In this document: positions 16,224 to 56,489 of the stretch, one piece after another
Position numbering within the stretch: position 1 is the stretch's first letter
Layout of the letters: every line of letters starts with the position of its first letter
Assembly: GCA_000004985.1 (NCBI GenBank)
Contig: GG738898.1
Direction: 5' to 3' (one strand)
Source of the DNA: Naegleria gruberi
Lineage: Eukaryota
DNA length: 64,000 bases
Translations under genes and position numbers: made by a program
Notes under the pieces: model-generated
The model's input: only the letters and a program-made list of their open reading frames with translations
The model's database searches: none
Told to the model about the DNA's origin: nothing

Positions 16224-16327
16224 ATGGCTACGGCCATATCACGATGAATGCACCTCATCCCGTCCGATTTGAGAAGTTAAGCATCGTCGAGCCACATCAG
16301 TACTGAGGTGGAGACAACTTGGGAACC
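16224..16327 (+). rRNA. 5S ribosomal RNA, copy 1 (3' end runs into 50-N gap)
   Basis: GGCTACGGCCATATCACGATGAATGCACCTCATCCCGTCCGATTTGAGAAGTTAAGCATCGTCGAGCCACATCAGTACTGAGGTGGAGACAACTTGGGAACC has the canonical 5S helices I-V, the GGCCATA start and the CCCGTCCGAT and AGTTAAGC motifs. Confidence 0.8.
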
Positions 16328-16435
16328 NNNNNNNNNNNNNNNNNNNNNNNNNNNNNNNNNNNNNNNNNNNNNNNNNNGCAGCAGATTGGCTGTTTATTGT
16401 TAGTAATTTATGATATCATTAGAATCGTTAGATAA

Positions 16436-16513
16436 CGTTTGAGAAGTTAAGCATCGTCGAACCACATCAGTACTGAGGTTGGATACAACTTGGGAACCTG
16501 TGGTGCTGTAGTA
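16436..16513 (+). rRNA. 5S rRNA, 3' two-thirds only (5'-truncated copy or repeat collapsed at the gap), followed by a T-run terminator
   Basis: Bases 16436..16513 match the copy-1 3' part and continue to the mature end GGGAACCTGTGGTGCTGTAGTA, then TTTTT. The sequence 5' of 16436 is not 5S-like. Confidence 0.6.
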
Positions 16514-16639: not shown

Positions 16640-19545
16640 ATTATATTTTCTTAACAAGATTCTTGTATTATTTATTTATTTTGTTATCGGACAGTTTATT
16701 TCAAGTTGACAACTTGGAAAAGTGACAAGTTAATTTAAAAAAAAATCTTTGCAAGATGTTAAATTCTTTCCACAAGAGAGAAAGAGAATATTCTGATGAA
16801 GAGGATACAACAGTAGAAGGAAACAAGGATGACCAAGCTGATGAACCTACCAGTGGCCCAACTCACTTTTTTATGCCAGAAACCTATGAACAAGCTATTC
16901 CGAAAAAGAAAAAGCTAATGGACTATGTTAATATTGATATTGAAAACAAAGTACAATTGCCTGAAGCAGAGAGTAGGAATGCAATTGAACACTACCTCAC
17001 AACAAATGTTGGAGCATCTTACTGTAAAAAGATTGGTGAGGGAGGAGGTGGAGATGTTTATCTTGTAAAGAAGGGAAACACCATGAAAGCAGTGAAACAC
17101 ATTCGCAGTTTTAGTAATGAATATAGTAGATTTGATGAGGTATTTCAAATTGCAAAGTTAAAGCACGACCACATTATTGAAATTGATGATTATTATTTGA
17201 TTAATAATGAATTTTGCTTCGAGATGGACTATTATGAAAAGGGCTCATTGGAAACATATAAGAATAAGTTGACAGTGGGTCAACTATTTCAAATAGCATG
17301 TCAAATTTCAAGTGCTATTAAATATATTTCAGAACAGGAACTATGTCATCGAGACGTCAAAATTGCTAACATACTCGTGAAGGAAATTACTGATTCTAAT
17401 ATTTATGTAGTATTGACAGACTTTGGAGTATCTTTTAAGAAAAACTCATACAAGCCCTACCAATTCAAAACTGGAACTGAGCAATATTACGATCCAGAAA
17501 TTGAAAAATACTTTAACACCGAAAAAAGAGGTTTACTAGAGTTTCCTTTCAAAACTGAAACTGATTTGTACGCCCTAGGTGTAACACTTGAACGATTATC
17601 CAACAAAACCACTATCAATAGTACTCCTCTTTTGAAAGAAATTATTACTAGTCTTACAAATTCAACTCTCCCAACAAGAATGAAAATGATGAATGTATTG
17701 GCTGATATTTCACTTGCAACTACCATAGCATTTAAAGATCCAAAAAACAGAACGCAGTGGGATAAGTACTTGCATGCTTGTGTTATGAACCCAAATTGTT
17801 TCATATTTTGCCCTTACAACAAAAATAAGCGATTTATTTACAAAGTATTGGATATCAATCACCATATTTTCGAAATGGTTCCTGACGATTTGTTGGATGA
17901 AAATATAGTTATAAAGTCAATAAGAGATGTCAGATCAGTATTAATATTTCAAAACAGAAATAAGGCTTGCATAGATAAGTTCAAGTCTTTAATTTCACAC
18001 CTCATAGACGTTCATGTACTTAGAAATGTACAATATAATACAGGAGAGAGAATCCAGACAGAGATGGAAAAGTTAAGTGAGAGTCAGTTGGAAATATTGG
18101 TATATTATAACTCTCGTTTTTTTAAATATTTTCCGATCAAGTACACATTGAATCGAAATATTGTATTTTCATTCATCAAAAAAGTGGAAGAATGTTTCCA
18201 GCATTGTAGTTACCGAGACGATGAAGAAATAATTCAATATGTACTAGAGAAAAATCCAAAGTTTATCACTTTCATCAGTTTTGAGTTAAGATTTAAATAT
18301 GAACAACAATATGCAAAGGAAATTTTGGAAGTGGATCCGTCTTTTTATTCATCCTTAAGTGAAATTAGTTTAAAAGATAGATTATTTGCCAAACTTGCAA
18401 TGAAAGGCTGCAAGTCACAACGTGATTTTGATTCAAATTTTGATTGTCTACCTGAAGATCTTAAAACTCAAGATTTTTTTATAGAGATAATTACAGAAAA
18501 TTCCAAGACTTTCCATAATTTGAAGAACCATTTGGATCATGACTCATTGGTACAGGTAATAACACCTAGTTTATATTTTACTTTGGAAGATAGAAGAAAA
18601 ATGGATCGAGATATTCTCAGAAAAATATTATCAGAGAAGTTTTCAAGTGAAGAAATAGAAAAAATATTGAATTGTTTGAGTGAAAATTATTATCACTCAC
18701 ATTTCAAACAGGAATTGTTTGAAAATATTTCAAAAGAAAGCGTGTTAGATTTAATATTGTTGGGTGTACCACTGCCTGAGTGTGTCTACTATCAACAGAC
18801 GCAGATTTCATATTGGAAATTATTACTCGTACCAAAAAAGGGTATTTTACATCAAGTTTTTTGAAAGATTCTACAATTAATATTTCCACATTGGTTTGGA
18901 TTTTATTAAGAAATTGTGCCTTGATAAACAGGGTTTCTCTCACTTGATTCATGCCATTGAAGTTAAAGAACAAGGAAATGAATTGATGCAAAAATGTTCA
19001 GATGACATTGAATTGGTAAATCAAATAATTGAAATATCTCCTGATCTATATGAAAATCTATCATGCAATAATTTAAAAAATAATGAAATAATAATTGAAA
19101 CTTATCTGAATCATACCTACTATCCTCGATTATCCAAAGATTTAAAACTTGATGATGAATTCCAAGCAAAGCATTTAAAAAAATTAATTGATTCAGGATA
19201 CATTACAAAACCAAATAGAGAATTAGTAAGGAGTGGAATATTTAAATCAAAGGATATAGGTTTATTGCTTTATTTGGAATCCAAGGATTTAGACGACAAA
19301 GAATTTATGCTTCCAATATTAGAGAAATTTCCTCGTGCTTATTTGAGCTGTAGATCCTTATTAATAGACAAGGAAATAATCAAGATGGTCATTCGTAAAA
19401 ATGATGAAATTTATGAAGATCTCGATACTACTTTTCAAAAAGATGAGGAAATATTATCTGTCCTTAATGAACCAAAAAGTTCCATCGATTCAATAATGGC
19501 AGAAGTTAATGATAATACTTCTGAGAAATAACTTGATAAATGTAT
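16640..19545 (+). repeat. Segmental duplication unit (about 2.9 kb), copy 1; inverted partner at about 52100..54745
   Basis: Nucleotide-level homology begins about 100 bp upstream of the kinase ATG (CAAGTTGACAACTTGGAAAAGTGA…) and ends about 10 bp after the stop (AAATAACTTGATAAAT). The copies are scattered with substitutions, so they are diverged paralogs rather than an assembly duplicate. Confidence 0.85.
16756..19531 (+). CDS. Atypical Ser/Thr protein kinase with long C-terminal domain of unknown function, copy 1 (two 1-nt frame disruptions near 18800 and 18885)
   Basis: The kinase domain carries IGEGGGGDVYLVKKGNTMKAVKHI, CHRDVKIANILV, TDFGVS and YYDPE. The track splits it into 16756..18864 and 18896..19531. 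Copy 2 on the opposite strand reads through the same region, which places two -1 indels in copy 1. Confidence 0.75.
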
Positions 19546-20455: not shown

Positions 20456-23400
20456 NNNNNNNNNNNNNNNNNNNNNNNNNNNNNNNNNNNNNNNNNNNNN
20501 NNNNNNNNNNNNNNNNNNNNNNNNNNNNNNNNNNNNNNNNNNNNNNNNNNNNNNNNNNNNNNNNNNNNNNNNNNNNNNNNNNNNNNNNNNNNNNNNNNNN
20601 NNNNNNNNNNNNNNNNNNNNNNNNNNNNNNNNNNNNNNNNNNNNNNNNNNNNNNNNNNNNNNNNNNNNNNNNNNNNNNNNNNNNNNNNNNNNNNNNNNNN
20701 NNNNNNNNNNNNNNNNNNNNNNNNNNNNNNNNNNNNNNNNNNNNNNNNNNNNNNNNNNNNNNNNNNNNNNNNNNNNNNNNNNNNNNNNNNNNNNNNNNNN
20801 NNNNNNNNNNNNNNNNNNNNNNNNNNNNNNNNNNNNNNNNNNNNNNNNNNNNNNNNNNNNNNNNNNNNNNNNNNNNNNNNNNNNNNNNNNNNNNNNNNNN
20901 NNNNNNNNNNNNNNNNNNNNNNNNNNNNNNNNNNNNNNNNNNNNNNNNNNNNNNNNNNNNNNNNNNNNNNNNNNNNNNNNNNNNNNNNNNNNNNNNNNNN
21001 NNNNNNNNNNNNNNNNNNNNNNNNNNNNNNNNNNNNNNNNNNNNNNNNNNNNNNNNNNNNNNNNNNNNNNNNNNNNNNNNNNNNNNNNNNNNNNNNNNNN
21101 NNNNNNNNNNNNNNNNNNNNNNNNNNNNNNNNNNNNNNNNNNNNNNNNNNNNNNNNNNNNNNNNNNNNNNNNNNNNNNNNNNNNNNNNNNNNNNNNNNNN
21201 NNNNNNNNNNNNNNNNNNNNNNNNNNNNNNNNNNNNNNNNNNNNNNNNNNNNNNNNNNNNNNNNNNNNNNNNNNNNNNNNNNNNNNNNNNNNNNNNNNNN
21301 NNNNNNNNNNNNNNNNNNNNNNNNNNNNNNNNNNNNNNNNNNNNNNNNNNNNNNNNNNNNNNNNNNNNNNNNNNNNNNNNNNNNNNNNNNNNNNNNNNNN
21401 NNNNNNNNNNNNNNNNNNNNNNNNNNNNNNNNNNNNNNNNNNNNNNNNNNNNNNNNNNNNNNNNNNNNNNNNNNNNNNNNNNNNNNNNNNNNNNNNNNNN
21501 NNNNNNNNNNNNNNNNNNNNNNNNNNNNNNNNNNNNNNNNNNNNNNNNNNNNNNNNNNNNNNNNNNNNNNNNNNNNNNNNNNNNNNNNNNNNNNNNNNNN
21601 NNNNNNNNNNNNNNNNNNNNNNNNNNNNNNNNNNNNNNNNNNNNNNNNNNNNNNNNNNNNNNNNNNNNNNNNNNNNNNNNNNNNNNNNNNNNNNNNNNNN
21701 NNNNNNNNNNNNNNNNNNNNNNNNNNNNNNNNNNNNNNNNNNNNNNNNNNNNNNNNNNNNNNNNNNNNNNNNNNNNNNNNNNNNNNNNNNNNNNNNNNNN
21801 NNNNNNNNNNNNNNNNNNNNNNNNNNNNNNNNNNNNNNNNNNNNNNNNNNNNNNNNNNNNNNNNNNNNNNNNNNNNNNNNNNNNNNNNNNNNNNNNNNNN
21901 NNNNNNNNNNNNNNNNNNNNNNNNNNNNNNNNNNNNNNNNNNNNNNNNNNNNNNNNNNNNNNNNNNNNNNNNNNNNNNNNNNNNNNNNNNNNNNNNNNNN
22001 NNNNNNNNNNNNNNNNNNNNNNNNNNNNNNNNNNNNNNNNNNNNNNNNNNNNNNNNNNNNNNNNNNNNNNNNNNNNNNNNNNNNNNNNNNNNNNNNNNNN
22101 NNNNNNNNNNNNNNNNNNNNNNNNNNNNNNNNNNNNNNNNNNNNNNNNNNNNNNNNNNNNNNNNNNNNNNNNNNNNNNNNNNNNNNNNNNNNNNNNNNNN
22201 NNNNNNNNNNNNNNNNNNNNNNNNNNNNNNNNNNNNNNNNNNNNNNNNNNNNNNNNNNNNNNNNNNNNNNNNNNNNNNNNNNNNNNNNNNNNNNNNNNNN
22301 NNNNNNNNNNNNNNNNNNNNNNNNNNNNNNNNNNNNNNNNNNNNNNNNNNNNNNNNNNNNNNNNNNNNNNNNNNNNNNNNNNNNNNNNNNNNNNNNNNNN
22401 NNNNNNNNNNNNNNNNNNNNNNNNNNNNNNNNNNNNNNNNNNNNNNNNNNNNNNNNNNNNNNNNNNNNNNNNNNNNNNNNNNNNNNNNNNNNNNNNNNNN
22501 NNNNNNNNNNNNNNNNNNNNNNNNNNNNNNNNNNNNNNNNNNNNNNNNNNNNNNNNNNNNNNNNNNNNNNNNNNNNNNNNNNNNNNNNNNNNNNNNNNNN
22601 NNNNNNNNNNNNNNNNNNNNNNNNNNNNNNNNNNNNNNNNNNNNNNNNNNNNNNNNNNNNNNNNNNNNNNNNNNNNNNNNNNNNNNNNNNNNNNNNNNNN
22701 NNNNNNNNNNNNNNNNNNNNNNNNNNNNNNNNNNNNNNNNNNNNNNNNNNNNNNNNNNNNNNNNNNNNNNNNNNNNNNNNNNNNNNNNNNNNNNNNNNNN
22801 NNNNNNNNNNNNNNNNNNNNNNNNNNNNNNNNNNNNNNNNNNNNNNNNNNNNNNNNNNNNNNNNNNNNNNNNNNNNNNNNNNNNNNNNNNNNNNNNNNNN
22901 NNNNNNNNNNNNNNNNNNNNNNNNNNNNNNNNNNNNNNNNNNNNNNNNNNNNNNNNNNNNNNNNNNNNNNNNNNNNNNNNNNNNNNNNNNNNNNNNNNNN
23001 NNNNNNNNNNNNNNNNNNNNNNNNNNNNNNNNNNNNNNNNNNNNNNNNNNNNNNNNNNNNNNNNNNNNNNNNNNNNNNNNNNNNNNNNNNNNNNNNNNNN
23101 NNNNNNNNNNNNNNNNNNNNNNNNNNNNNNNNNNNNNNNNNNNNNNNNNNNNNNNNNNNNNNNNNNNNNNNNNNNNNNNNNNNNNNNNNNNNNNNNNNNN
23201 NNNNNNNNNNNNNNNNNNNNNNNNNNNNNNNNNNNNNNNNNNNNNNNNNNNNNNNNNNNNNNNNNNNNNNNNNNNNNNNNNNNNNNNNNNNNNNNNNNNN
23301 NNNNNNNNNNNNNNNNNNNNNNNNNNNNNNNNNNNNNNNNNNNNNNNNNNNNNNNNNNNNNNNNNNNNNNNNNNNNNNNNNNNNNNNNNNNNNNNNNNNN

Positions 23401-24688
23401 NNNNNNNNNNNNNNNNNNNNNNNNNNNNNNNNNNNNNNNNNNNNNNNNNNNNNNNNNNNNNNNNNNNNNNNNNNNNNNNNNNNNNNNNNNNNNNNNNNNN
23501 NNNNNNNNNNNNNNNNNNNNNNNNNNNNNNNNNNNNNNNNNNNNNNNNNNNNNNNNNNNNNNNNNNNNNNNNNNNNNNNNNNNNNNNNNNNNNNNNNNNN
23601 NNNNNNNNNNNNNNNNNNNNNNNNNNNNNNNNNNNNNNNNNNNNNNNNNNNNNNNNNNNNNNNNNNNNNNNNNNNNNNNNNNNNNNNNNNNNNNNNNNNN
23701 NNNNNNNNNNNNNNNNNNNNNNNNNNNNNNNNNNNNNNNNNNNNNNNNNNNNNNNNNNNNNNNNNNNNNNNNNNNNNNNNNNNNNNNNNNNNNNNNNNNN
23801 NNNNNNNNNNNNNNNNNNNNNNNNNNNNNNNNNNNNNNNNNNNNNNNNNNNNNNNNNNNNNNNNNNNNNNNNNNNNNNNNNNNNNNNNNNNNNNNNNNNN
23901 NNNNNNNNNNNNNNNNNNNNNNNNNNNNNNNNNNNNNNNNNNNNNNNNNNNNNNNNNNNNNNNNNNNNNNNNNNNNNNNNNNNNNNNNNNNNNNNNNNNN
24001 NNNNNNNNNNNNNNNNNNNNNNNNNNNNNNNNNNNNNNNNNNNNNNNNNNNNNNNNNNNNNNNNNNNNNNNNNNNNNNNNNNNNNNNNNNNNNNNNNNNN
24101 NNNNNNNNNNNNNNNNNNNNNNNNNNNNNNNNNNNNNNNNNNNNNNNNNNNNNNNNNNNNNNNNNNNNNNNNNNNNNNNNNNNNNNNNNNNNNNNNNNNN
24201 NNNNNNNNNNNNNNNNNNNNNNNNNNNNNNNNNNNNNNNNNNNNNNNNNNNNNNNNNNNNNNNNNNNNNNNNNNNNNNNNNNNNNNNNNNNNNNNNNNNN
24301 NNNNNNNNNNNNNNNNNNNNNNNNNNNNNNNNNNNNNNNNNNNNNNNNNNNNNNNNNNNNNNNNNNNNNNNNNNNNNNNNNNNNNNNNNNNNNNNNNNNN
24401 NNNNNNNNNNNNNNNNNNNNNNNNNNNNNNNNNNNNNNNNNNNNNNNNNNNNNNNNNNNNNNNNNNNNNNNNNNNNNNNNNNNNNNNNNNNNNNNNNNNN
24501 NNNNNNNNNNNNNNNNNNNNNNNNNNNNNNNNNNNNNNNNNNNNNNNNNNNNNNNNNNNNNNNNNNNNNNNNNNNNNNNNNNNNNNNNNNNNNNNNNNNN
24601 NNNNNNNNNNNNNNNNNNNNNNNNNNNNNNNNNNNNNNNNNNNNNNNNNNNNNNNNNNNNNNNNNNNNNNNNNNNNNNNNNNNNNNNN
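20456..24688. other. Assembly gap (4233 N). Smaller 50-N gaps lie at 16328..16377, 38531..38580 and 54345..54394. There is a single ambiguous base at 28277.
   Basis: Runs of n in the sequence. Confidence 1.
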
Positions 24689-26386: not shown

Positions 26387-26935
26387 ATGGACTTTTTCAA
26401 AAAGATTGGTCAATTCTTCTCTGGATGGCTCAAAGGTTTATTCGAAAATAAGGAAGCCAAGATTCTATTCCTTGGTTTGGATGCAGCTGGTAAAACTTCA
26501 GCTCTATATAAGATTCAATTAGATGAAAATGTCAGCACCATTCCAACTATTGGTTTCAATGCTGAAGTTATACAATATAAGAAGGTTACTTTCAGAGTGT
26601 TTGATATTGGTGGTCAGGATAAGATTAGAAAGTTATGGAGACACTATTATCAATCGACGAATGCTATCATTTTCATTGTCGATTCTAATGATACTGAGAG
26701 ATTTAAAGAAGCTGCTGAAACCTTACGGGAAGTTATGCAAGATGATCTGTTGAAAGATGCCAAGTTATTGGTGTGGGCTAATAAGCAAGATTTACCAAGA
26801 GCTGCCAATGTTAAAGACATGGTCAATACTTTGAAATTACACGAGATCAAGCAAGAATGGTACATCCAACCATGTAGTGCCCTGTCTGGAAATGGATTAT
26901 TCGAAGGTTTAGATTGGTTATCCAGTAAATTGTAA
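26387..26935 (+). CDS. ARF-family small GTPase (ARL-like; no N-terminal Gly2 myristoylation site)
   Basis: 182 aa with [40 protein letters not shown] and CSALSGNGL. About 80% identical to the paralog at 51338..51874. Confidence 0.9.
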
Positions 26936-26975
26936 ATATCACAATGAATAAAATCATGTCCAATGGAGACACTAT

Positions 26976-28105: not shown

Positions 28106-28992
28106 ATGTCCACTACTACTATTACTACTACTTCTAAAACTACATCCCGTGTCTGGCTTATTGTTGGTACTTCCACAGGTTTCGGAAGAGAATTTGTCAA
28201 GTCTGTCCTTCATAGAGGTGAAAAGGTTATAGCCACAGCTCGTTCCTTGGACAAGATTCAAGATTTGAAGGAATTGNGTGCTCATACTATGCAACTTGAT
28301 GTTACCTCCGATCAAGGTACATTAAATTTGTTTGCTGAGCAGGCAATTGGAGTGTATGGTCATGTTGATATTCTCATCAATAATGCTGCCTATGTTTTGA
28401 ATGGGACTATTGAGGAGACATGAGGAGATCAACACTTGTTTAATACCAATGTTTTTGGATTGTTGAATACGACACGTGCTATTCTTCCACATTTTCGTGA
28501 AAGAAAGAGTGGAATTATTGTAAATATTCATCCATTGGTGGAATAGCTAGTGTTAAAGTTGGTGGATTGTATTGTGCTACTAAATTTGCTGTGGAAGCAA
28601 TTTCTGAAGCACTCAAAGATGAAGTTGCTCATTTGGGAATTAAGGTTGTCGTTGTTGAACCAGGTTACTTTAGAACTGATTTGCTTTCGTCTAGTAATAT
28701 GAAGGATGCTAAAAAAACTATTTCAGATTATGAACCAATTTACAAGGAAGTTGATTTCCATGCTGTTAATCACAAGCAAAGAGGTGATCCTGTAAAGTTA
28801 TCCGAAAGACTCGTTGATGTTTTGACCCAGAGTGGAGTTGCTGCTGGAAGAGAAATTCCATTCAGAATTCCATTTGGTGTTGATGCTTATCCATTCATTG
28901 AAGGTAAATGTCAAACTGTTTTGAAGGAAATGAAGGAATGGGAAGATGTCATTAAGAGTACTGATCATGATGATGTCACTCCTCAACAATAA
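28106..28992 (+). CDS. Short-chain dehydrogenase/reductase (classical SDR)
   Basis: Carries the TGxxxGxG-like motif VGTSTGFGREF, NNAAY and the YCATK catalytic Tyr-x-x-x-Lys. An in-frame TGA sits at the conserved Trp position (IEET*GDQ) at about 28421. A 1-nt deletion in a T run near 28535 splits the ORF. A single N lies at 28277. Confidence 0.8.
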
Positions 28993-37947: not shown

Positions 37948-40450
37948 TTGAAAATGAGTCAACCACCTTCCGAACCAACTCAACCAGTATCATCATCACA
38001 GTATGTAGAAAGTCTACCAATTCCAGAGGAATCATCACCAAGATTTAGATCAAATTCAAGGTCTCGAGATGGACCACTCTCTCCTACCTTCCAAAAGATG
38101 CCAGCCGATGTTTGGGATTTATCCTCTGAACACCATTCGAAAAAAGCTTCTCTTCCAAAATCACCATCAAGCTTATTAAAGGGATCTAACTGCAATTTGC
38201 AACAAATTGGAAAAACCAACTCATCATCTCAAGTTACACATCATTCAAAGACAAAATTAACTTTGGACATTATTCGTAAATTGCCAAAAGCTGAATTGCA
38301 CAGACACTTGGATGGTTCTGTTCGTGTTGAAACCATCATTGAACTTGCCAAGGAACAAGGTGTCGATTTGCCATCATTTGATGTTGAAGAATTGAGAAAA
38401 CTTGTCTCTGTTACAAATGATTGCACTTCACTTGTTGAATATTTACGTGGCTTTGATATTTCCCTCTCTGTCATGCAAAAGAGATACAGTATCACACGTA
38501 TCATGTACGAAGTTTGTGAAGATGCTGGAANNNNNNNNNNNNNNNNNNNNNNNNNNNNNNNNNNNNNNNNNNNNNNNNNNAGGTATGAGACAAATGGATA
38601 GCAAGATTACCTTGCAACTTGCAGAAATTGCTTGGCGTTACAGAGACCGTGGTGTCTGTGCCTTTGACTTGGCTGGGCCAGAAAATGGCTTCTCCTCAAA
38701 GAACCATGCTTCTGCATTTGAATTAGTTCATCGTAAAATGTTGAACTGCACTCTTCACTCTGGTGAAGCCAGTGGTTGGGAATCTATTCAAGATTCAATT
38801 CGTTATTGTGGTGCTAATCGTATTGGTCACGGAACTCACTTGAAGGAAAATCCAGACCTCACTCAATATGTTGCCAATCACAGAATTCCAATCGAAATTT
38901 GTATCACCAGTAACTTGCAAACTAAGGCCATTCAAAAATTCGAAGAACATCCAGTTCGTGAATTCTTTGATTATGGTATTGTACTTGTTCCATGTACTGA
39001 TAATACTACTGTTAGTAATGTAACACTCTCTGAAGAATACTTGTTAATTCAAAACCAATTCGGATTTGATGTTAAGGAAATTGTCAAACTCATTGATTAT
39101 GGTTTCCGTTCTGCATTCTTGGACTTGTCTATTAAGAACAGACTCCGTGCTGATGCTCTCCATACCATTCAAGAAATCCTCTCCAGTGAAGGATACGACT
39201 TGACAAGTAGTTTCTCTGCCAAGTCTGCTGTTGATTTGGGCTTTGATTTCAACAATAGAGCTGAAATTCTCCCAGTTGACTATGATCTCTACAAGAATGA
39301 AACCATCAGACAATTCATCAATTCCATTCCAAAGGCTGATGTTAACTGTCGTTTCAATGGTTCAGTTTCTGTTGATACTTTGTGGACAAACTTGTCACAC
39401 GATGAATACTCTACCGATTTCCTCAATTTGGAATTGGAATTATTAGGATTGGGAAGAATTCACTCCAAGAATGAATTGGAATGTCTTATTAGACCACCTG
39501 GAGCCAAGCATGACAAGTCAACAATTGCTCGTGCCATTCAAGTCATGTCCTTGTTCTTACAAACTAAGAGTCAAATTATTCATGGTTGTGAAGATATTTT
39601 AGAAAAGGCTGCTGCTGAGCATGTCTTTTATCTTGAATTACAAGTGAGACCAACTATGCACACCAAGAGAGGTCTCAGTGCTCAAGAAGTTTTGGATGTC
39701 ATGGTTGTTACTATCAATGAATGCAGCAAGAGATATAATATTCAAGTTGGTCTCGTTGTTTATGGTGATTTTACTTCCGATGGTTTGGACCAATTGAAAG
39801 AACTTTCCCTCCTCACCATTAGAAATAAGAAGAATTTGGTTGGTTTTGGTTTCTTTGGATACAATGATGAAAAGGGTGCTATCCTCCCTGAATTAATCCC
39901 AGTTTTCAACATGTTGAAGAATCATCAAATTAACGTTTGCTGTTCTGCTGGTTTCTATAATCCTCTCAGTGTCATTCCTGCTATCCATGATGTTGGTGCT
40001 TCTAGATTGAGTGGTTGTTTCTCCATCCACTCTTCTCCATCTGTCATGAGCTACTTGTGTGACAATGGTGTTCCTATTGAAATTTCCATGACTGATACTT
40101 TGAAGAATCTCACAAAGGAAGTTAATGAATTTGCTGGATCTGCTGTCAGATTATTCTTGGATAGAGGTATCAAGGTTGCTCCATGTTCACTCGATTTGAC
40201 CTTGTACGATATGAATCGTTCTGAAAATATCTACTTGATGTCTAAGGAATGCAATTTGAGTTTGAACGAAGTTGTTCAACTCATGTTAATTGGTTTCCGT
40301 ATCTGTTTCCAAAACTATTGGACTCGTAAGGAAATGTTCATTGGTGCCTATCACACAATGTTGAAATTGGTTGATAATTTGAAACTCACATTTGACACTG
40401 ATTCATTCTCCCTCTTCTGTTCCTCATACAATCCAGCGGAAAAGGATTGA
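37948..40450 (+). CDS. Adenosine/AMP-deaminase-family protein with two tandem ADA-fold domains (first intact, second degenerate); spans a 50-N gap
   Basis: Domain 1 has LPKAELHRHLDGS (HxH), HSGEA, RIGHG and VPCTDNT. Domain 2 has NCRFNGSVSVD, CCSAGF and SMTDT at the equivalent positions. ORFs 37948..38601 and 38402..40450 join across the N gap. Confidence 0.8.
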
Positions 40451-44744: not shown

Positions 44745-47532
44745 TTACAAAACAAAATTGAGAAGGACAATCAAGAAGGCACCAATAAGGAGTGAATAGA
44801 AATTCTTAGGTGCCTTGCTGAGGACCATTTCCAATTCTGTTTGTTGGATATTGAAAGTGCTTGAAATGACCATACTGAAATTTTGATCGCCGACATTGTT
44901 TTCATTTGCCATGACGTTTACAGTGCAAATGTCACTCTTAGTAGTAAAGTACACCTGTTCGACAGTATTAACCTTGTCCAACATTCCATTCCCTAAATAT
45001 TCTTCACCACCCGTACAATGAACAGAAAGATCCAAATCATTGATTAATTTGGTAACATTGGAAGTCATGTCTGATTGAGAAGCTCTATCATACCATGTAA
45101 GAGTAATCTTGATAGCATTCCTAGCTTCGAAAAGGAAGGTATAGGATTTCTTTTGTCCTGGTGAAATTGGTTGTCTATTCAAAACTCTGAGAGTATCTGG
45201 ATTGGAGAATTTCATAACAGTGTCCAAACTAACTGTACCATAACCATAAATAGGATTTGGAGAAGAATAACTTGAAATATCAATGGAAGGATCAGTGAGA
45301 GATGAATAGATGGCACCTTCAACTGGAAGTGCAGAGTGAATAAGGAAGGCCTTAATCAAAGTACCTGACACACTCAATGTTTCATTCTCTCCCAAAGTGT
45401 TATTCAAATTGAAATATCTCAAACGTTCATAATTATTAGCAGTGAGATATTCTCTAACAAGTGCAGCCGAACCCGACTAAATAACACCATGTGCCAAATT
45501 CAGTAAATACAATAACTTATTAAAGTAAAAAATAATAGAAATAACATACGACACCTGGTGTTGACATTGATGTTCCGCTCAATGCCACAAAGTCACAAGT
45601 TGATCCACTCTTTGCAGACATTATGAAATGACCTGGGGCCATAACATCTGGCTTGTTTCTTCCATCCATGGTTGGACCTTTTCCTGAGAAGAGAGGCATT
45701 CCCATACTGAAAGTTGAATACTTGCTTTCACATTTGGAGGCACTCATTGAGGTAGAATTACAATAGGATGTGTAATAGTTGTGAACTGCTCCGACAGAGA
45801 GTAAATTCTTGGCTGTTGCTGGAGCTGAAATACTTTCTAAAAGTGAAATATTGCCACTGTTACCTGAAGCTTGGACAATAATCATGTCATCGTGGTCATA
45901 GAGGAATTGATCCATCAAACTTGCTTGGTCACTGTAGCCAAGACATTGTTGGTGACATTTCACACCCTTCTCTGCCATGCATTCAGTGTCATTGACTATG
46001 GCTCCTCTTTGTCCATTCTGTTTCAATCGGTAACAAACTCTGTTATAGTCGCAAGAGTAACTTGAAGGTTTGCATCCCCAAGAGTTGGAGTGAATTCTAG
46101 AGCCAGCCAAATTGTAAGCTCTATTTAACATTCCTTGTAAATCATAGTTTGATGCCACAGAACCATCAGCACTTGAAGAGAAATCAATCACATAGAGTTT
46201 TGCATTCTTGGCCACACCATTTCTTTTCGACATTGAACTGGAAGGATATCTAGATGACAAATCACCAGCAATAATACCAGCAACGTGTGAGCCGTGTCCA
46301 TTGGTATCAATCATGTCCATTCCTTCAATACCAACAACCTTTTTATGATTGAAATTAATGGATGTATAGTTGGTTGCATTCTTATCGTAGAATAAACAGT
46401 GCTCTACAGAAATTCCTGTATCAATATAGGAAACAATTTGATTCTTTCCTGTAATTCCGTTATCCCAAATGGTTGATCCTAATTCTTCAATTCTTCCTCC
46501 TTGAACAACATTGTTCATTCCCTCATCGAAGAGTTGAGTTTCAGTAGCTCTGGAAACATGGATAATTGACTCATCAGAGGAAAGTTGTTCATAGAGAGAT
46601 TGGGCTAATTGTACATTCAAATTCTCAAGCATTCTTCTATTTCTTGTTGGTTCAGACTCCACTTCAATGAATTGATTTGGGCTCAATGAAAATAACTTAT
46701 TTCTTGGGTGGAGGAGTTGAGTGAGTGAAAAATCAAACTTTCCGCTCAATTCCTTATTCATCCATTCAGTATTGGATTCAAAGGTTGATTCTAATCCTCT
46801 CACTCTGGACAATTCACTTTCAGACATACTCCTTACAGTGGTTCTCACTCGCTTGTTTACTTCTCCCTTTAACCAATTCGAAAGCTTTCTCTCTGAAAAT
46901 CCATGAGATGTTTCAATCAAGAGTGGAGCTCTACTCAATGATAAAACATCACTAATAGGAATTGAAATTCTATGAGAGGAAGGAACTCTCTTAATCCACT
47001 CAATATTCAATGATTTCATTCTTGATGAAGCCAAAGAGAGAATAACCTTCGGAGTTGCTAGTACCTTAAAGATTCTATTGTTTGTTCCGTATTGTGGTAC
47101 AAAGTTCTTGTCAAAGTTTGATGTTTTCTTCATCAAATCATTTTCCTTATTATCATCGTTGTTTTCAAAGGCAAGAGCTATTTGTTGGAGAAGTGAATCT
47201 TTCAAAAGGACTCCATCAGCAATTTTAATATAAGTCAATAAGTAATCATTCGGTCTATCAAAGAGCATTGCTTTGTATTGTTCAATATTAGAACTAATTG
47301 AAGTTGAAGCAACTTTCACTTGTATCTTTGTTTGATGATGAAAGGAGAGAAATAATTTGGCCAAACAAGGACCCACCGATTCAAATCTTGATATTTCTGT
47401 TGCATTTACATTCCCCAACAGACAGAACAACACAACGATCATCATCATTGCAACAATTAAAAAAGCAGAAGTAACACCTCTTCCGCTGTTGTTACTCGTC
47501 CTCATCCTCTTCTTCTTCTCTAATATCTCCAT
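44745..47532 (-). CDS. Subtilisin-like serine protease (peptidase S8) with signal/TM N-terminus, pro-region, and C-terminal domain ending in a TM anchor; two exons
   Basis: Exons are 45550..47532 (ATG at 47532) and 44745..45476, with a 73-nt GTATGT…TTTAG intron. The catalytic triad motifs are VSYIDTGI (Asp), TNGHGSHVAGIIAG (His) and ALSGTSMSTPGV (Ser). The C-terminal hydrophobic stretch is FYSLLIGAFLIVLLNFVL. Confidence 0.85.
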
Positions 47533-48933: not shown

Positions 48934-48981
48934 TTTTCTTCTTTCTTTTTAATGTTGTTAAGGAGAGCGAATGACTGTGGG

Positions 48982-49634
48982 GCAGAACCTTTAGAAAATA
49001 TAAATTGTAATATTTATTAACGTCTCTTGTATCGTAAAGACCTGAGAGACGAGGTCTACAACCAGTACGTTTCGGATCAGCGTTTAAGTGTTATGGGTTG
49101 ACGCTAAGTGGTTGTTTAGACTGGGCCTGCCTGTGGTAGGCAGAGAGGTATTTCCTGTTAATAGTGAAGCTTGCATTGGGACGGTAGTACCACACTGAGT
49201 TCTTGTACAAATAAATAGCTAGTGCTTTGTAGACTTCTAGGGCCACATTCTTAGGTAGTCTTTTGCGCTTAGACCAGTTAAGTCATTACGGGAGCAACGA
49301 CCATCAAATTCTATCCTAAGTTGAGAGGATTCTGAGACATCAGGAGGGAATCTGTAGTTTCACCCTTGAGCGCCTTATTTATCATGGCTCTTGCGATTTT
49401 TTGGGTGATAGGAGAGCATCTACGCTTGAGAGGTATCTAGGTACAGAAAGCACTTCAGAGATAATATTACGTTCCTCATTGGACCGAGTCTCAAGTGTTT
49501 TGGTCTGAAATTTAGTAATCTGGATTCAACTTTTAAGAGAACCTTATCATCGGAGGGAGACCAAGACATGTTATTAATAAAGGAGGTGTAGATACTCTAA
49601 CGGATTATTCTCAGAACTGAACCTTTAGAAAAAA
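48982..49634. repeat. GC-rich (about 45%) non-coding island of about 610 bp flanked by 16-18 bp direct repeats (CAGAACCTTTAGAAAA); candidate SINE-like or retroelement insertion, or ncRNA locus
   Basis: Direct repeats lie at 48982..48999 and 49612..49633. No ORF of 60 aa or more occurs on either strand. Composition differs sharply from the flanks. An internal hairpin GACCTGAGAGACGAGGTC is present. Confidence 0.35.
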
Positions 49635-50074
49635 TCCAAATAACATGTTAAGAAAACTAATAAACAGATGATGAAAATTAACAGACAACATTATCATGCC
49701 AAGTGATCAGTACTAAACATGAATTGTTAGGAGGTATAGTATACTTCAAAAAGGTAAAAAGGCATGGGTGGAGTTTCGCCACCAACACTTCAGAGAAATG
49801 AGCTGATCGTGATGTTAGAATTACACTACATGCCTCAAATACAATTCAATTTCACAACCTATCTTACCTTCAGTTTGTTTTAAATGTTCACTTCATTATG
49901 GTATTATTCTTTTCTTAAACTACTCTGAAGGTTCAAAACACACTATTAGTTATTTAACTGATGTCTAATGTACTTCAAGTTCTAAAATACCATGACATAA
50001 CATTAGTTTCTATAAGAAATGAACTTTTTTTAATTTCTAAATTTCCAAACCACAACCCAAGTTCACTTTGGCCA

Positions 50075-50141
50075 CTCTTCACTGTTCATGCAGTCAAAGA
50101 CTGCAGCGGGATAGTCGTCATATTCCTGGCAGGCTTCCCGT
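50075..50141 (+). ncRNA. Candidate small structured RNA / conserved repeat element, copy A (about 140 bp upstream of tRNA-Asp)
   Basis: CTTCACTGTTCATGCAGTCAAAGACTGCAGCGGGATAGTCGTCATATTCCTGGCAGGCTTCCCG contains a perfect 6-bp hairpin (GCAGTC-AAA-GACTGC) and a CGGGA…TCCCG stem. A copy about 91% identical lies at 54800..54870 in inverted orientation. Confidence 0.35.
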
Positions 50142-50281
50142 TTCGTTTTGTAATTGAAATCATTATTCGAACAAACACAGCTTGACAGTCAATCTAATTT
50201 CAAAAAAGAATATCTATTGGTTAGCTCAAGTAACTGCTTTTCACTAAGGCCATGTAAGGAATCTTTGTATCATGTATGTAA

Positions 50282-50352
50282 TCGGGTGTGGTATAGTGGT
50301 AGCATTCCAGACTGTCACTCTGGCGACCCGGGTTCAATTCCCGGCACTCGAG
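50282..50352 (+). tRNA. tRNA-Asp(GUC): tRNA-Asp (anticodon GTC)
   Basis: TCGGGTGTGGTATAGTGGTAGCATTCCAGACTGTCACTCTGGCGACCCGGGTTCAATTCCCGGCACTCGAG. The 7-bp acceptor stem includes one G-U pair. The D arm is GTAT/AGTGGTAG. The anticodon loop is CTGTCAC. The T arm is CCGGG-TTCAATT-CCCGG. The fold is close to eukaryotic tRNA-Asp. Confidence 0.9.
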
Positions 50353-50750: not shown

Positions 50751-51203
50751 ATGATGCTTAATTGTCAATTCAGTGATGAAATTATCAAAACCTATGAAGA
50801 AATGAGAATGGGAAAGGGTTCGAATAAGGATAAAAAGTTCCTAGTATTGAAAATGCAAGAAAGTTCCATTCAAATAGATCAAGAATTGACTCAACTCTCT
50901 TCATTGGATGAATTGACTTCTAATCTTCCACCAAAAAATTCTCGTTTCATTTGCTATCATTTAAGTTTCGAAATGCCATCTCAAAACGAAACTTGTCAAA
51001 TCAGAGAAGGAATCAGAACTAAAATGATGTTTCTCACATGGTGTCCAAACGAAACCAATGTTAAGGAAAAGTTTCAAGTTGCTGCCACTGTCAAAACAGT
51101 TAAACAAAAATTAAATGGTTTGAGTGCAACTATTCACTGCTCAACCAAGAGTGAAATTGATGAAAAGTCAATGATTGAAAAATGTTTAACTTTTATGAAA
51201 TGA
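50751..51203 (+). CDS. ADF/cofilin-family (ADF-H domain) actin-depolymerising-factor-like protein
   Basis: 150 aa. It fits the cofilin/GMF pattern (C.FSDEII..YEEM.MGK…KKFLVLK…LPPKNSRFICYHLSF……KMMFLTWCPNETNVKEKFQVAATVKTVKQKL). Confidence 0.65.
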   Translation: MMLNCQFSDEIIKTYEEMRMGKGSNKDKKFLVLKMQESSIQIDQELTQLSSLDELTSNLPPKNSRFICYHLSFEMPSQNETCQIREGIRTKMMFLTWCPNETNVKEKFQVAATVKTVKQKLNGLSATIHCSTKSEIDEKSMIEKCLTFMK

Positions 51204-51337: not shown

Positions 51338-51874
51338 TTACAATTTGCTAGATAACCAATCTAAACCTTCAAATAAACCAGTGCCATTCATTGCGCTACA
51401 TGGTTGTATATACCAATCTTGTTTGATTGAATTTAATTGCAGAATCTTGGCAAGATCTGTAACATTGGCAGCTCTTGGTAAATCTTGCTTATTAGCCCAC
51501 ACCAATAACTTGGCATTTGATAGAGATGGATCTTCCATTACTTTATGCAATGTTTCCGAAACTTCTTCAAATCTCTCTCTATCATTCGAATCGACAATGA
51601 ATATCACAGCATCTGTTCCATTATAATAATGTCTCCATAAGGTTCTAATCTTATCCTGACCACCAATATCAAACACTCTGAATTGAACTCTCTTATATTG
51701 AATCACTTCGGCATTGAAACCAATAGTAGGTATAGTATTGACATTCTCATCTAATTGAATCTTGTACAGTGTTGATGTTTTACCAGCTGCATCCAAACCT
51801 AAGAAGAGAATTTTTGCTTGTTTGTTTTCGAATAGGGATAAGTTCTTTATCATGTTAGAAAGTAATTGACCCAT
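51338..51874 (-). CDS. ADP-ribosylation factor (ARF) with N-terminal Met-Gly (myristoylation-competent)
   Basis: 178 aa. MGQLLSNM…[36 protein letters not shown]…[16 protein letters not shown]…ANKQDLP…[20 protein letters not shown]. Confidence 0.9.
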
Positions 51875-52113: not shown

Positions 52114-54760
52114 TTACTCAGAAGTATTATCATTAATTTCTGCCATTATTGAATCGATGGAACTTTTTGGTTCATTAAGGACCGATAATATTTCCTCATC
52201 TTTTTGAAAAGTAGTATCGAGATGTTCATAAATTTCATCATATTTACGAATGACCATCTTGATTATTTCCTTGTCTATTAATAAGGATCTACAACTCAAA
52301 TAAGCACGAGGAAATTTCTCTAATATTGGAAGCATAAATTCCTTGTCGTCTAAATCCTTGGTTTCCAAATAAAGCAATAAACCTATATCCTTGGATTTAA
52401 ATATTCCACTCCTTACTAATTCTCTATTTGGTTTTGTAATGTATCCTGAACCAATTAATTTTTTTAAATGCTTTGCTTGGAATTCATCATCAAGTTTTAA
52501 ATCTTTGGATAATCGAGGAAAGTAGGTATGATTCAGATAAGTTTCAATTATTATTTGATTATTTCTTAAATTATTGCATGATAGATTTTCATATAGAGCA
52601 GGATATATTTCAATTATTTCATTTACCAATTCAATGTCATCTGAACATTTTTGCATCAATTCATTTCCTTGTTCTTTCACTTCAATGGCATGAATCAAGT
52701 GAGAGAAACCCTGTTTATCAAGGCGCAAGTTCTTAATAAAATCCAAACCAATGTTGGAAATATTAATTGTAGAATCTTTCAAAAAACTTGATGTAAAATA
52801 CCCTTTTTTGGTACGAGTAATAATTTTCAATATGAAATCTGCGTCGTGTTGATAGTAAAACAACTCAGGCAGTGGTACACCCAACAATATTAAATCTAAC
52901 ACTCTTTCTTTTGAAATATTTTCAAACAATTCCTGTTTGAAATGTGTGTGATAATTTTCACTCAAACAATTCAATATTTTTTCTATTTCTTCACTTGAAA
53001 ACTTGTCTGATAATATTTTTCTGAGAATATCTCGATCCATTTTTCTTCTATCTTCCAAAGTAAAATATAAACTAGGTGTTATTACCTGTACCAATGAGTC
53101 ATGATCCAAATGGTCCTTCAAATTATGGAAAGTCTTGGAATTTTCTGTAATTATCTCTATAAAAAAATCTTGAGTTTTAAGATCTTCAGGTAGACAATTA
53201 AAATTTGAATCAAAATCACGTTGTGATTTGCAGCCTTTCATTGCAAGTTTGGCAAATAATCTATCTTTTAAACTACTCTCACTTAAGGATGCATAAAAAG
53301 TCGGATCTACTTCCAAAATTTCCTTTGCATATTGTTGTTCATATTTAAATCTTAACTCATCTGAACTGATGTCAGTGATAAACTTTGGATTTTTCTCTAG
53401 TACATATTGAATTATTTCTTCATCATCTCGGTAACTACAATGCTGGAAACATTCTTCCACTTTTTTGATGAATGAAAATACAATATTTCTATTAAATTTG
53501 TACTTGAAAGGAAAGTAATTAAAAAATAGAGAGTCATACTCTACTAATATTTCCAACTGACTCTCGCTTAACTTTTCCATCTCTATCTGGATTCTCTTTC
53601 CTGTATTATATTGTACATTTCTAAGCACATGAACGTCTATGAGTTGTGAAATTAAGGACTTAAACTTATCTATGCAAGCCTTATTTCTGTTTTGAAATAT
53701 TAATACTGATCTGACATCTCTTATTGACTTTCTAACTATATTTTCATCCAACAAATCGTCAGGAACCATTTCGAAAATACGGTGATTGTTATCCAATACT
53801 TTGTAAATAAAGCGCTTATTTTTGTTGTAAGGGCAAAATTTTAAACAATTTGGGTTCATAACACAAGCATGCAAGTACTTATCCCACTGCGTTCTGTTTT
53901 TTGGATCTTTAAATGCTATGGTAGTTGCAAGTGAAATATCAGCCAATACATTCATCATTTTCATTCTTGTTGGGAGAGTTGAATTTTTAAGACTAGTAAT
54001 AATTTCTTTCAAAAGAGGAGTACTATTGATAGTGGTTTTGTTGGATAATCGTTCAAGTGTTACACCTAGGGCGTACAAATCAGTTTCAGTTTTGAAAGGA
54101 AACTCTAGTAAACCTCTTTTTTCGGTGTTAAAGTATTTTTCAATTTCTGGATCGTAATATTGCTCAGTTCCAGTTTTGAATTGGTAGGGCTTGTATGAGT
54201 TTTTCTTAAAAGATACTCCAAAGTCTGTCAATACTACATAAATATTAGAATCAGTAATTTCCTTCACGAGTATGTTAGCAATTTTGACGTCTCGATGACA
54301 TAGTTCCTGTTCTGAAATATATTTAATAGCACTTGAAATTGACANNNNNNNNNNNNNNNNNNNNNNNNNNNNNNNNNNNNNNNNNNNNNNNNNNTCTCTG
54401 CTTCAGGTAATTGTACTTTGTTTTCAATATCAATATTAACATCGTCCATTAGCTTTTCTTTTTCGGAATAGCTTGTTCATAGGTTGGACTTTCTGGCATA
54501 AAAAAGTGAGTTGGGCCACTGGTAGGTTCATCAGCTTGGTCATCCTTGTTTCCTTCTACTGTTGTATCATCCTCTTCATCAGAATATTCTCTTTCTCTCT
54601 TGTTGAAAGAATTTAACATTTTAAAGATTTTTTTTAATTTTAAATTATCTTGTGAAATCATCTCACTTTTCCAAGTTGTCAACTTGCTCATCCTGCAGCT
54701 TAGAATTTGAAATAAACTAAAATAAAATAAATTAATCCAAGCAATAAACAACGTATCCAT
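52114..54760 (-). CDS. Atypical Ser/Thr protein kinase with long C-terminal domain, copy 2 (inverted paralog of 16756..19531); contains a 50-N gap and an N-terminal frame break at an A-run
   Basis: ORF 52114..54267 is continuous through the region that is frameshifted in copy 1. N-terminal pieces are 54449..54760 (MLNSFNKREREYSDEEDDTTVEGNKDDQADEPTSGPTHFFMPESPTYEQAIPKKK) and 54264..54449. It is about 93% aa-identical to copy 1. Confidence 0.75.
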
Positions 54761-54799
54761 TCCAGCTCTTGCTCTATTAAGCTACATTTCGATTATTAA

Positions 54800-54870
54800 T
54801 TTGGACGGGAAGCCTGCCAGGAATATGGCGACAATCCCGCTACAGTCTTTGACTGTATGAACGGTGAAGG
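54800..54870 (-). ncRNA. Candidate small structured RNA / conserved repeat element, copy B (just upstream of kinase copy 2)
   Basis: Reverse complement: GTTCATACAGTCAAAGACTGTAGCGGGATTGTCGCCATATTCCTGGCAGGCTTCCCG. In the hairpin the G-C pair of copy A is replaced by A-T (ACAGTC-AAA-GACTGT), a compensatory double substitution. Confidence 0.35.
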
Positions 54871-55300
54871 CAACGAATCTATTGATTGTTGGTTCAGTAA
54901 GTTTGTTGTTTAGAAAAGCTTGCTTCGTGACCATTTATTTATCACCTTTGAATTTAATCTATTTGGAAAGTGAAACTTGTGGTTGATCAATAAATGATCA
55001 AATTTCGAATTTAAGCGGCCAGTGGTTCAAATAATATTTAGACAATTGGGTATTAAAGCTCAGGGGCTGAACCACCTTAATGGTGAAACAGCCTGGAACC
55101 TGCTTTGAAGGATGTAAATCTTTATCCACAGCAGTTAAAAGAGTCTCCTTAATAGTAAACAACCCAAACAATTTGGATAAGATTGAATTTACAAGTTTTT
55201 CAATAAAGTTCTTTAAATTGGCCAATTTTCTTCACATATTTGTACATTTCCATTTCAATATTGTCAAACGCGGCAGCAATTCACATTTGTTTGGTCCCAT

Positions 55301-56489
55301 CTATTTGAATGAAAATAAAGCATCAGAAAATGGAGAAGCATTCAGTGAAAATGATTTGAGATTTTTGATAAAGTAAATCTCACTCTTTCCAACTTGTTTG
55401 GTGAACTTGTTTCTAAATATTAAGGCATGCCAAGGACCAAGTGAAAATTGTTGATCTTCATATTCTACCTTATGAAAATATCCTACCTTGTCCAAATCAT
55501 CTTTTACAGATCCGTAAAATATAAAATGAGTAGGTGTTCGGAGAGCAGTACAAATACTTCCACATTCAATATCAAGAACTCCTGTTACTTTGACTTCACA
55601 AAAGGTACCTTCTATATCTATAACATCTCCATTTGCACATTGATTGTAATTGTTGAGTCCTCTTGTAAATACCTGTCCGTTTTCTAATAGAACCGCACAA
55701 TGTCCATAACCTGATGAAACCTTCTTGATTCCACTATTAAAGAGTGGAGTAGCAACCTCAACAGTAACTCCAAGTTCATAAGATGCAAATCCATAATGGG
55801 AATCCTGTGTGGCGCCATCCTTAATAATGTAGAATTTGTTATTTTCCAAAACAATAATTTGTAAATCTCTGCAAAAACATGAAAATAGCTTGACTGGTGA
55901 TGGATCATTAATTACAACTTCTTTAGGATCTACATTAAACTGTTTCTTAATAATTTTCCCCTCAGTAGTTTGAACCATTATTATGTTCGACATTAGTCCA
56001 CTTCCAATCACTCTAATTTGTGAAGATCTCAATAAAGAAGCAAGACAGCGATCCAGTCTTGACATCAAACTGATACAATCTTCCATCCATCATTTCAAAC
56101 AATAGTCCATTATTATTCAGCAAGACTACTCTCTTCATCAATCGTGACCAATAAGGTTCTGCTCTAGGTGTCATCTGATTGAACAATACTTCAAAAACAT
56201 ATTTCTTTTCCATGAAAAACCACCTCGATTCACTTCCTTCAAAAAAGTACAATGAATAGGGTTTAGATTCACCACCCGAACAAACCATAGAGAGTGGTAA
56301 TTCATCATGTTCTCCGATCTGATCATCCAAAACCCCAGAAACAAAGGAATCCTTTCGCAATACAATGGAGGGAAATACTTGCGAGTTGTCTACACCACGT
56401 AAATTGGCTCCATGAGCGCCATCACAGTAGAGTTTGTATTTTTCATTCATTTTTTTAATGACTTGATCAAGTATTAATAGATTATTCAA
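55301..56489 (-). CDS. RCC1-like repeat (beta-propeller) protein, frame break near 56013-56086
   Basis: GYGHCAVLLENGQVFTRGLNNYNQCANG and other G..H…L..G.V…G.N…Q-like repeats. It is split into 56013..56489 and 55301..56086. Confidence 0.45.

Follow-up and report, generated by a model that had tools for sequence, protein, structure and literature searches.

The DNA analysed here, referred to as the window, is a 64-kb stretch of a scaffold of Naegleria gruberi, whose genome is AT-rich (about 0.33 GC overall; coding GC3 0.30). It contains two inverted copies, 4.7 kb apart, of a sequence with a 65-base GC-rich core: copy A on the plus strand (50077-50141) and copy B on the minus strand (54805-54869). 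The two cores are identical at 60 of 65 positions (92.3%; blastn E 1e-19), which bears out a first-pass annotation of this DNA that had reported inverted copies of about 91% identity over about 65 nt. A repeat search also returned wider arms of 84 nt at 85% identity, with the similarity weakly continuing downstream. Both cores have a GC content of 0.52 and the same architecture. In copy A, a single-stranded 5' tail of 12 nt (CUUCACUGUUCA, within 50077-50141, plus strand) is followed by hairpin 1 (50089-50105, plus strand), with 7 bp and an AAA loop, and then by hairpin 2 (50106-50141, plus strand), which is closed by a G-U pair and has 13-14 bp interrupted by a bulge and an internal loop. Two sub-patterns of 22-23 nt taken from the element each occur exactly twice in the window and never in 100 shuffles. 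A covariance model built from the pair (R1), run over the 64 kb with filters off, yielded no credible third copy; a 15-bit match at 38741-38803 is unrelated and falls within coding sequence.

Between the copies lie a tRNA-Asp(GTC) gene (50282-50352, plus), a cofilin gene (50751-51203, plus), an ARF gene (51338-51874, minus) and a CAMK-type kinase gene with a DUF4116 region (kin2; 52117-54619, minus). The tRNA gene is on the same strand as copy A and 140 nt downstream of it, as had been noted before, and it is taken here as context and not as part of the element. Likewise as context, kin2 shares the strand of copy B. The distance of about 60 bp given earlier for this pair has to be corrected, since the homology-supported start of the kinase (MLNSF..., ATG at 54619) is 185 nt downstream of copy B. 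The kinase has an inverted paralog in the window (kin1, 16702-19545, plus, versus kin2, 54686-52097, minus; 96.6% identical DNA), and this duplication ends at 54686, which leaves copy B 118 nt beyond it. The dN/dS ratio between kin1 and kin2 is about 0.5-0.6, and the reading frame of kin1 is broken near 18864-18896, where the NCBI model P0002 bridges the break with an intron, a pattern suggestive of a pseudogene or of a relaxation of constraint. A 717-aa ORF (52114-54267, minus) matches the N. gruberi NCBI proteins P0001 at 100% and P0002 at 94%. In the window, P0001 (933 aa; 54312-56450, minus) joins RCC1-like exons (56450-56223 and 55870-55487) to the kinase at 54312, spans a gap of 50 N (54345-54394), omits the N-terminus of kin2 (ATG 54619) and takes copy B as an intron, and it is probably a fused mis-model of two genes.

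The ARF genes are also duplicated (26439-26938, plus, and 51834-51335, minus; 82.5% identical), and each follows a kinase paralog in the same relative orientation, suggesting an older inverted duplication of a kinase/ARF block, in which the kinases were later homogenised or duplicated. A 4.2-kb run of N (20456-24688), an assembly gap, separates kin1 from the first ARF gene, and the long ORFs called across it are artefacts. A 5S rRNA gene (16226-16343, plus; Rfam 60.7 bits), split by a gap of 50 N (16328-16377), and a second partial 5S copy (16438-16498, plus; 95% identical) are both located about 200 nt upstream of kin1, the place held by copy B upstream of kin2. Cofilin has further N. gruberi paralogs on other scaffolds (P0003, accession D2VZT4, 97%; P0004, 88%; P0006, 76%; P0008, 69%). 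Finally, a 660-nt segment between a minus-strand gene and copy A (48960-49620) has a GC content of 0.415, compared with 0.19-0.30 in its neighbours, and gave no ORF, no Pfam match in six frames and no Rfam match; possible readings are a gene in decay and a non-coding transcript that lacks annotation. A decayed transposon or a Fanzor/TnpB gene was considered for the 1.1-kb non-coding stretch upstream of copy A and was dropped when a six-frame Pfam search of that stretch came back empty.

In both copies the fold consists of a 7-bp hairpin and, immediately 3' of it, an imperfect hairpin of 13-14 bp. Hairpin 1 reads UGCAGUC-AAA-GACUGCA in copy A and UACAGUC-AAA-GACUGUA in copy B, so that the hairpin with a matched change described in the first-pass annotation is present in both copies, its stem being 7 bp and not 6 bp as stated there; the second stem, CGGGA...UCCCG, is the same in A and B, also as described. 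The folding energies of the sense strands are about -25.7 to -26.1 and -25.4 kcal/mol, with z-scores of -3.8 and -4.5 against dinucleotide shuffles. The complementary strands reach -16.8 and -22.0 kcal/mol (z -1.15 and -2.8), and the sense strand folds better because hairpin 2 contains three G-U pairs. The fold of the element as DNA is significant as well (z -3.2 and -3.9), and hairpin 1 is a perfect palindrome on both strands.

These values were compared with those of all 65-nt segments of the window, both strands included, which gave 23,694 folds. Copies A and B rank first and second among distinct loci, an energy of -25 kcal/mol is reached by only five of the 23,694 strand-windows, and the tRNA-Asp gene itself folds less stably (-23.7 kcal/mol) than either copy. 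In base composition the cores (0.52 GC) contrast with flanks of 0.30 GC on both sides and belong to the top 0.06% of 65-nt segments, the fraction that reaches 0.53. The 3' limit of the high-identity core coincides exactly with the closing pair of hairpin 2. Thus, the element is a real repeat and an outlier in structure and composition, and one would very seldom meet this stability and GC content in a randomly drawn piece of this genome. Two limits apply to this comparison. First, copies A and B are one evolutionary object, so the outlier fold counts as a single observation. Second, two other segments, which lie within coding sequence or antisense to it, have energies of -24 to -25.5 kcal/mol, meaning that such folds do arise by chance. 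These are a very stable hairpin at 46701-46765 (plus; -25.5 kcal/mol, z -4.9), antisense to a 670-aa ORF (45520-47532), and another at 28821-28885 (plus; -23.9 kcal/mol, z -4.3).

The five differences between the cores, from copy A to copy B, are U7C, G14A, C28U, A37U and U42C. One falls in the 5' tail, two form a G-C to A-U double change in hairpin 1, one is in the internal loop and one converts a U-G pair of hairpin 2 to C-G, with the result that none of the 20 pairs of the RNAalifold consensus is broken. When four transitions and one transversion were placed at random on one copy, which was then refolded, 7.3% of the trials from A to B and 3.0% of those from B to A were at least as stable as the real partner; at least one compensatory pair appeared in 5% of the trials, and a compensatory pair without additional breakage in 1.1-3.5% (P 0.011-0.035). 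The covariation therefore amounts to one compensatory pair and one wobble-to-Watson-Crick change between only two sequences (P about 0.03-0.07), and none of the structural tests goes beyond nominal significance. The first-pass annotation had seen in the double change the classic signature of selection on secondary structure. With one compensatory pair in two sequences (P about 0.05) and a stability P of 0.03-0.07, the pattern is suggestive and not classic. In addition, a perfect palindrome can acquire matched changes by intrastrand template switching, a process that requires no selection.

Outside the cores, similarity is found downstream. Past copy A (50142-50160, plus), a 9-nt spacer that is not conserved (TTCGTTTTG) and that contains the only T-run precedes a conserved box (TAATTGAAAT); past copy B (54786-54804, minus), the corresponding spacer is CCAAATTAA and the box TAATCGAAAT. 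The box, TAATYGAAAT, thus lies exactly 9 nt past the core (+10 to +19) in both copies and is identical at 9 of 10 positions, a coincidence with a P of about 0.001-0.002 by shuffling and by comparison with random intergenic pairs. Beyond it, a weak residual homology runs in register between 50161-50241 (plus) and 54705-54785 (minus). In the 100 nt downstream of the core, 43 positions are identical where 30 would be expected (P 0.0025), none of the 41 offsets tested scores higher than offset 0, and leaving out the first 20 nt does not abolish the signal (P 0.016); the test is post-hoc, and its weight as evidence is moderate. If this homology is real, the duplication took in the flank and is old, and the core has changed far less than the flank (5 differences in 65 versus 57 in 100; Fisher P 3e-11). 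The weak downstream homology and the box thus hint at a core that evolves much more slowly than its flank. With homologous flanks, this would point either to constraint or to repeated conversion limited to the core; with a spurious match between the flanks, the core need not be constrained at all.

The upstream flanks of A and B are unrelated and have no similarity that would fit a shared promoter. The ACCCAAG motif upstream of copy A, put forward earlier as a possible promoter element, is absent at the matching position upstream of copy B. A 19-nt local match between the upstream sequences (CAACC-CAAG-TTCACTTT) lies at different distances from the two cores and is not significant (P 0.1). A 4-bp helix between the upstream flank and the downstream box, which would have closed the structure and supplied a second compensatory change, was also rejected, as it depends on a gapped alignment of non-homologous flank and is easily obtained by chance. 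TTTT occurs 8 nt past the core in copy A only, with none in copy B within the roughly 45 nt scanned, and no Pol III A box or B box, terminator or promoter is common to both copies.

Comparison with known RNA families gave no assignment. At both copies, the 4227 covariance models of Rfam 15 returned nothing, either at gathering thresholds or at E <= 1, and the only Rfam matches in the window are tRNA-Asp and 5S rRNA. For a tRNA or a tRNA-derived SINE, ARAGORN predicted no tRNA at either copy, and neither core contains an A box (TRGCNNAGTGG) or a B box (GGTTCGANNCC) within two mismatches. For box C/D snoRNAs (C box RUGAUGA, D box CUGA), CTGA is absent from both strands of both copies, and C-box-like strings are found only on the antisense strand of copy A and are not kept in copy B. 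For box H/ACA snoRNAs, no ACA is conserved in both copies after either hairpin, and the internal loops have only 1-2 nt. An Sm site (RAU3-6GR) is absent from the sense strand of either copy, the sole match being in the antisense flank of copy B and unshared. Among ribozymes, the element has no CUGANGA of the hammerhead core (CUGANGA...GAAA), the complement of the 5' tail expected of an HDV-like fold (AGUGAAG) is missing from the element, and the Rfam ribozyme models gave no match. For a TIR transposon or MITE, the window offers no visible target-site duplication, no transposase and only two copies.

Outside the genome, no relative of the element was found among viral contigs, prokaryotic genome contigs, plasmids and phages. 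A match of a 22-nt pattern to a JGI metagenome sequence (L001) extends over 23-24 nt only, lies within a bacterial-looking ORF and has unrelated flanks, and was set down to chance. Two Naegleria-like cofilin contigs from metagenomes (L002 and L003) have neither the element nor the tRNA. Full-text literature searches on Naegleria snRNAs, snoRNAs, repeats and strings of the element turned up nothing relevant, nor any account of Naegleria small RNAs of this type.

On this basis, we tentatively favour, with somewhat less than even confidence, a reading of the core as a structured RNA element of an undescribed family, with its sense strand plus at A and minus at B and present as two old copies. Such an RNA, with two adjacent hairpins behind a short single-stranded 5' tail, would come from a small non-coding RNA gene of its own or form a cis-acting motif within a longer transcript; its two paralogous copies would be old, with flanks decayed almost to background and the core kept by selection on folding. 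In this respect the earlier proposal of a candidate novel small ncRNA survives in part: the element is discrete and GC-rich, folds beyond its shuffles and has no broken pair; on the other side, it has no third copy in the window, no Rfam family and no shared promoter or terminator. Overall, an orphan structured-RNA element is plausible and unproven. Transcription of the element, selection on it and any function of the box 9 nt downstream are inferences from the sequence; by analogy with the 3' box of snRNA genes, one might speculate that this box is a signal for 3'-end formation. A more specific form of this reading, which we consider unlikely, is that A and B are the founding pair of a small RNA family (about 65-85 nt) specific to Naegleria or Heterolobosea, independently transcribed beside small-RNA genes, with the downstream box involved in 3'-end formation and more copies in the 41-Mb genome, e.g., beside the 97% cofilin paralog.

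Several known systems offer partial parallels. The element resembles small Pol II and Pol III ncRNAs such as snRNAs, U7, and vault and Y RNAs (60-110 nt) in its size, as a GC-rich island in AT-rich intergenic DNA, in the layout of a single-stranded 5' tail followed by terminal hairpins, and in its position among small-RNA genes (tRNA-Asp here, and 5S rRNA upstream of the paralogous kinase). The snRNA 3' box is called to mind by the short conserved box that lies some 10 nt beyond the structured part. However, unlike those RNAs, the element has no Rfam match, Sm site, A or B box, shared upstream element or shared T-run, and it is known from its sequence alone. A second parallel is provided by the single-hairpin H/ACA-like and short C/D snoRNAs of Euglenozoa, which are relatives of Heterolobosea; they are likewise about 65 nt long and fold mainly into hairpins, but in the element there is no combination of C and D boxes on either strand, no conserved ACA/AGA box three nt from the 3' end and no pseudouridylation pocket. 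The third consists of GC-rich palindromic or double-hairpin mini-elements, as exemplified by the GC clusters of yeast mitochondria, the double-hairpin elements of chytrid mtDNA and the Rickettsia palindromic elements. These mini-elements are likewise short, discrete, GC-rich two-hairpin units with sharp boundaries, found at unrelated sites in an AT-rich background. They are organellar or bacterial and occur in many copies, whereas the present element is nuclear, has two copies in the window and displays no visible insertion signature.

The foremost alternative, possible although we think it doubtful, is that the pair is a non-functional inverted duplicate, i.e., that about 65-85 bp were copied to a site 4.7 kb away and then drifted neutrally. 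Such a copy could have arisen as a templated insertion or template switch during the kinase/ARF rearrangements, as a gene-conversion patch or from a selfish GC-rich palindromic mini-element; the hairpins would then be a property of the source sequence, and the matched changes would be due to chance or to the intrastrand template switching mentioned above. The cores differ at 5/65 positions (7.7%), a value equal to the synonymous divergence between kin1 and kin2 (0.088 over 509 codons and 0.045 over 199 codons), and 92% identity alone is therefore no proof of constraint: if the element was copied as recently as the kinase similarity implies, its identity would be explicable without selection. 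In line with this, copy B lies close to the kinase duplication boundary (118 nt beyond it), the region has been repeatedly rearranged (kinases at 96.6%, ARF genes at 82.5%, several cofilin paralogs), only two copies exist in the window, no promoter, terminator or known family is shared, and the compensatory pair has a P of only about 0.05. Against this origin, a segment picked at random would have very little chance of folding best, and of ranking almost highest in GC content, among the 65-mers of the 64 kb, the edges of identity match the edge of the fold, and no target-site duplication is visible in the outer flanks. Moreover, the decayed in-register homology downstream (P 0.0025) implies an older duplication with a slower-evolving core.

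A role of the element as DNA, which appears distinctly unlikely, would make each copy a cis-regulatory module whose palindromes (CAGTC-AAA-GACTG, CCTG-G-CAGG and CGGGA-N24-TCCCG, as putative sites) bind dimeric factors, with the downstream 100 nt being part of a promoter that serves kin2 at copy B and the tRNA-Asp/cofilin side at copy A. Both copies are intergenic and face, over comparable distances, a downstream gene (tRNA-Asp at 140 nt; the kinase homology at 118 nt and its ATG at 185 nt), the diverged downstream flank keeps its register without indels, as would be seen where spacing matters, and hairpin 1 is palindromic on both strands, with significant DNA folds of both copies (z -3.2 and -3.9). 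However, 65 contiguous nucleotides at 92% identity far exceed what transcription-factor sites need, and the reliance of hairpin 2 on G-U pairs, which leaves a weaker fold on the complement, points to RNA. Further, kin1 lacks the element and has 5S rRNA genes in its place, and the nearest gene downstream of copy A is a tRNA gene, which has an internal promoter.

A coding explanation also deserves mention, because the statement in the first-pass annotation that no ORF is involved does not strictly hold: both copies occupy the same frame of short ORFs, one of 74 aa over copy A (49961-50185, plus) and one of 50 aa over copy B (54782-54934, minus). The element could accordingly be the conserved C-terminal portion, about 28 codons, of a small ORF or terminal exon, with the peptide FTVH[AT]VKDCSGIV[VA]IFLAGFP[FS][RK][FL][VI]IE[IM]. 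This frame is open in both copies, and three of the five core differences are synonymous in it, the compensatory G-to-A and C-to-T changes corresponding to an Ala/Thr replacement and a silent Cys change. The 9-nt spacer reads F-R-F versus S-K-L, with Arg CGT becoming Lys AAA, and is followed by V/I, I, E and I/M; a reading frame would thus account for the in-register similarity downstream. Scored with BLOSUM, the differences are more conservative than in 99% of permutations (P 0.0099), and the four synonymous codons have a P of 0.09. Nevertheless, the protein-coding reading is, on the sequence features that follow, very unlikely. The codon adaptation index of the 21 core codons is 0.36 and 0.41, compared with 0.72 +/- 0.09 in local genes, where none of 1470 gene windows is as low, and GC3 is 0.62 versus 0.30 in the genes of the window. 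A search of 5.8 billion proteins at E <= 10, with a chimera of both open frames from both copies as the query, returned no homolog at all, an annotated self-hit included. At their N-terminal ends the 74-aa and 50-aa ORFs are unrelated, an AG acceptor is absent at the 5' edge of the homology, the P of 0.01 rises to about 0.06 once corrected for the six frames tested, and chance alone produces many ORFs of 50-74 aa in this window. Lastly, a mobile or composite element of 4.8 kb, with tRNA-Asp, cofilin, ARF and kinase as cargo and the two copies as its terminal inverted repeats, is hardly credible: although the inverted copies do bracket a four-gene block, there is no target-site duplication of 2-10 bp at the outer ends (GGCCACT| ... 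|GCAACGA), no transposase or recombinase among the ordinary cellular cargo and no Pfam match in the adjoining 1.1 kb of non-coding DNA, and the weak extra homology is on the inner side only.

The comparison of these explanations illustrates how the same five substitutions can be accounted for by more than one model, and that a single compensatory pair between two paralogs cannot separate selection at the RNA level from neutral drift or a coding-like constraint. To return to the structured RNA element that we tentatively favour, the sequence may represent an uncharacterised small RNA of N. gruberi. If the pair proves to be merely a short inverted duplicate, it would be an ordinary marker of a template-switch rearrangement amid recent gene duplication. 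The non-coding RNA content of Heterolobosea is almost unexplored, and a lineage-specific structured RNA located beside tRNA and 5S genes would, if true, be a useful entry point into it.
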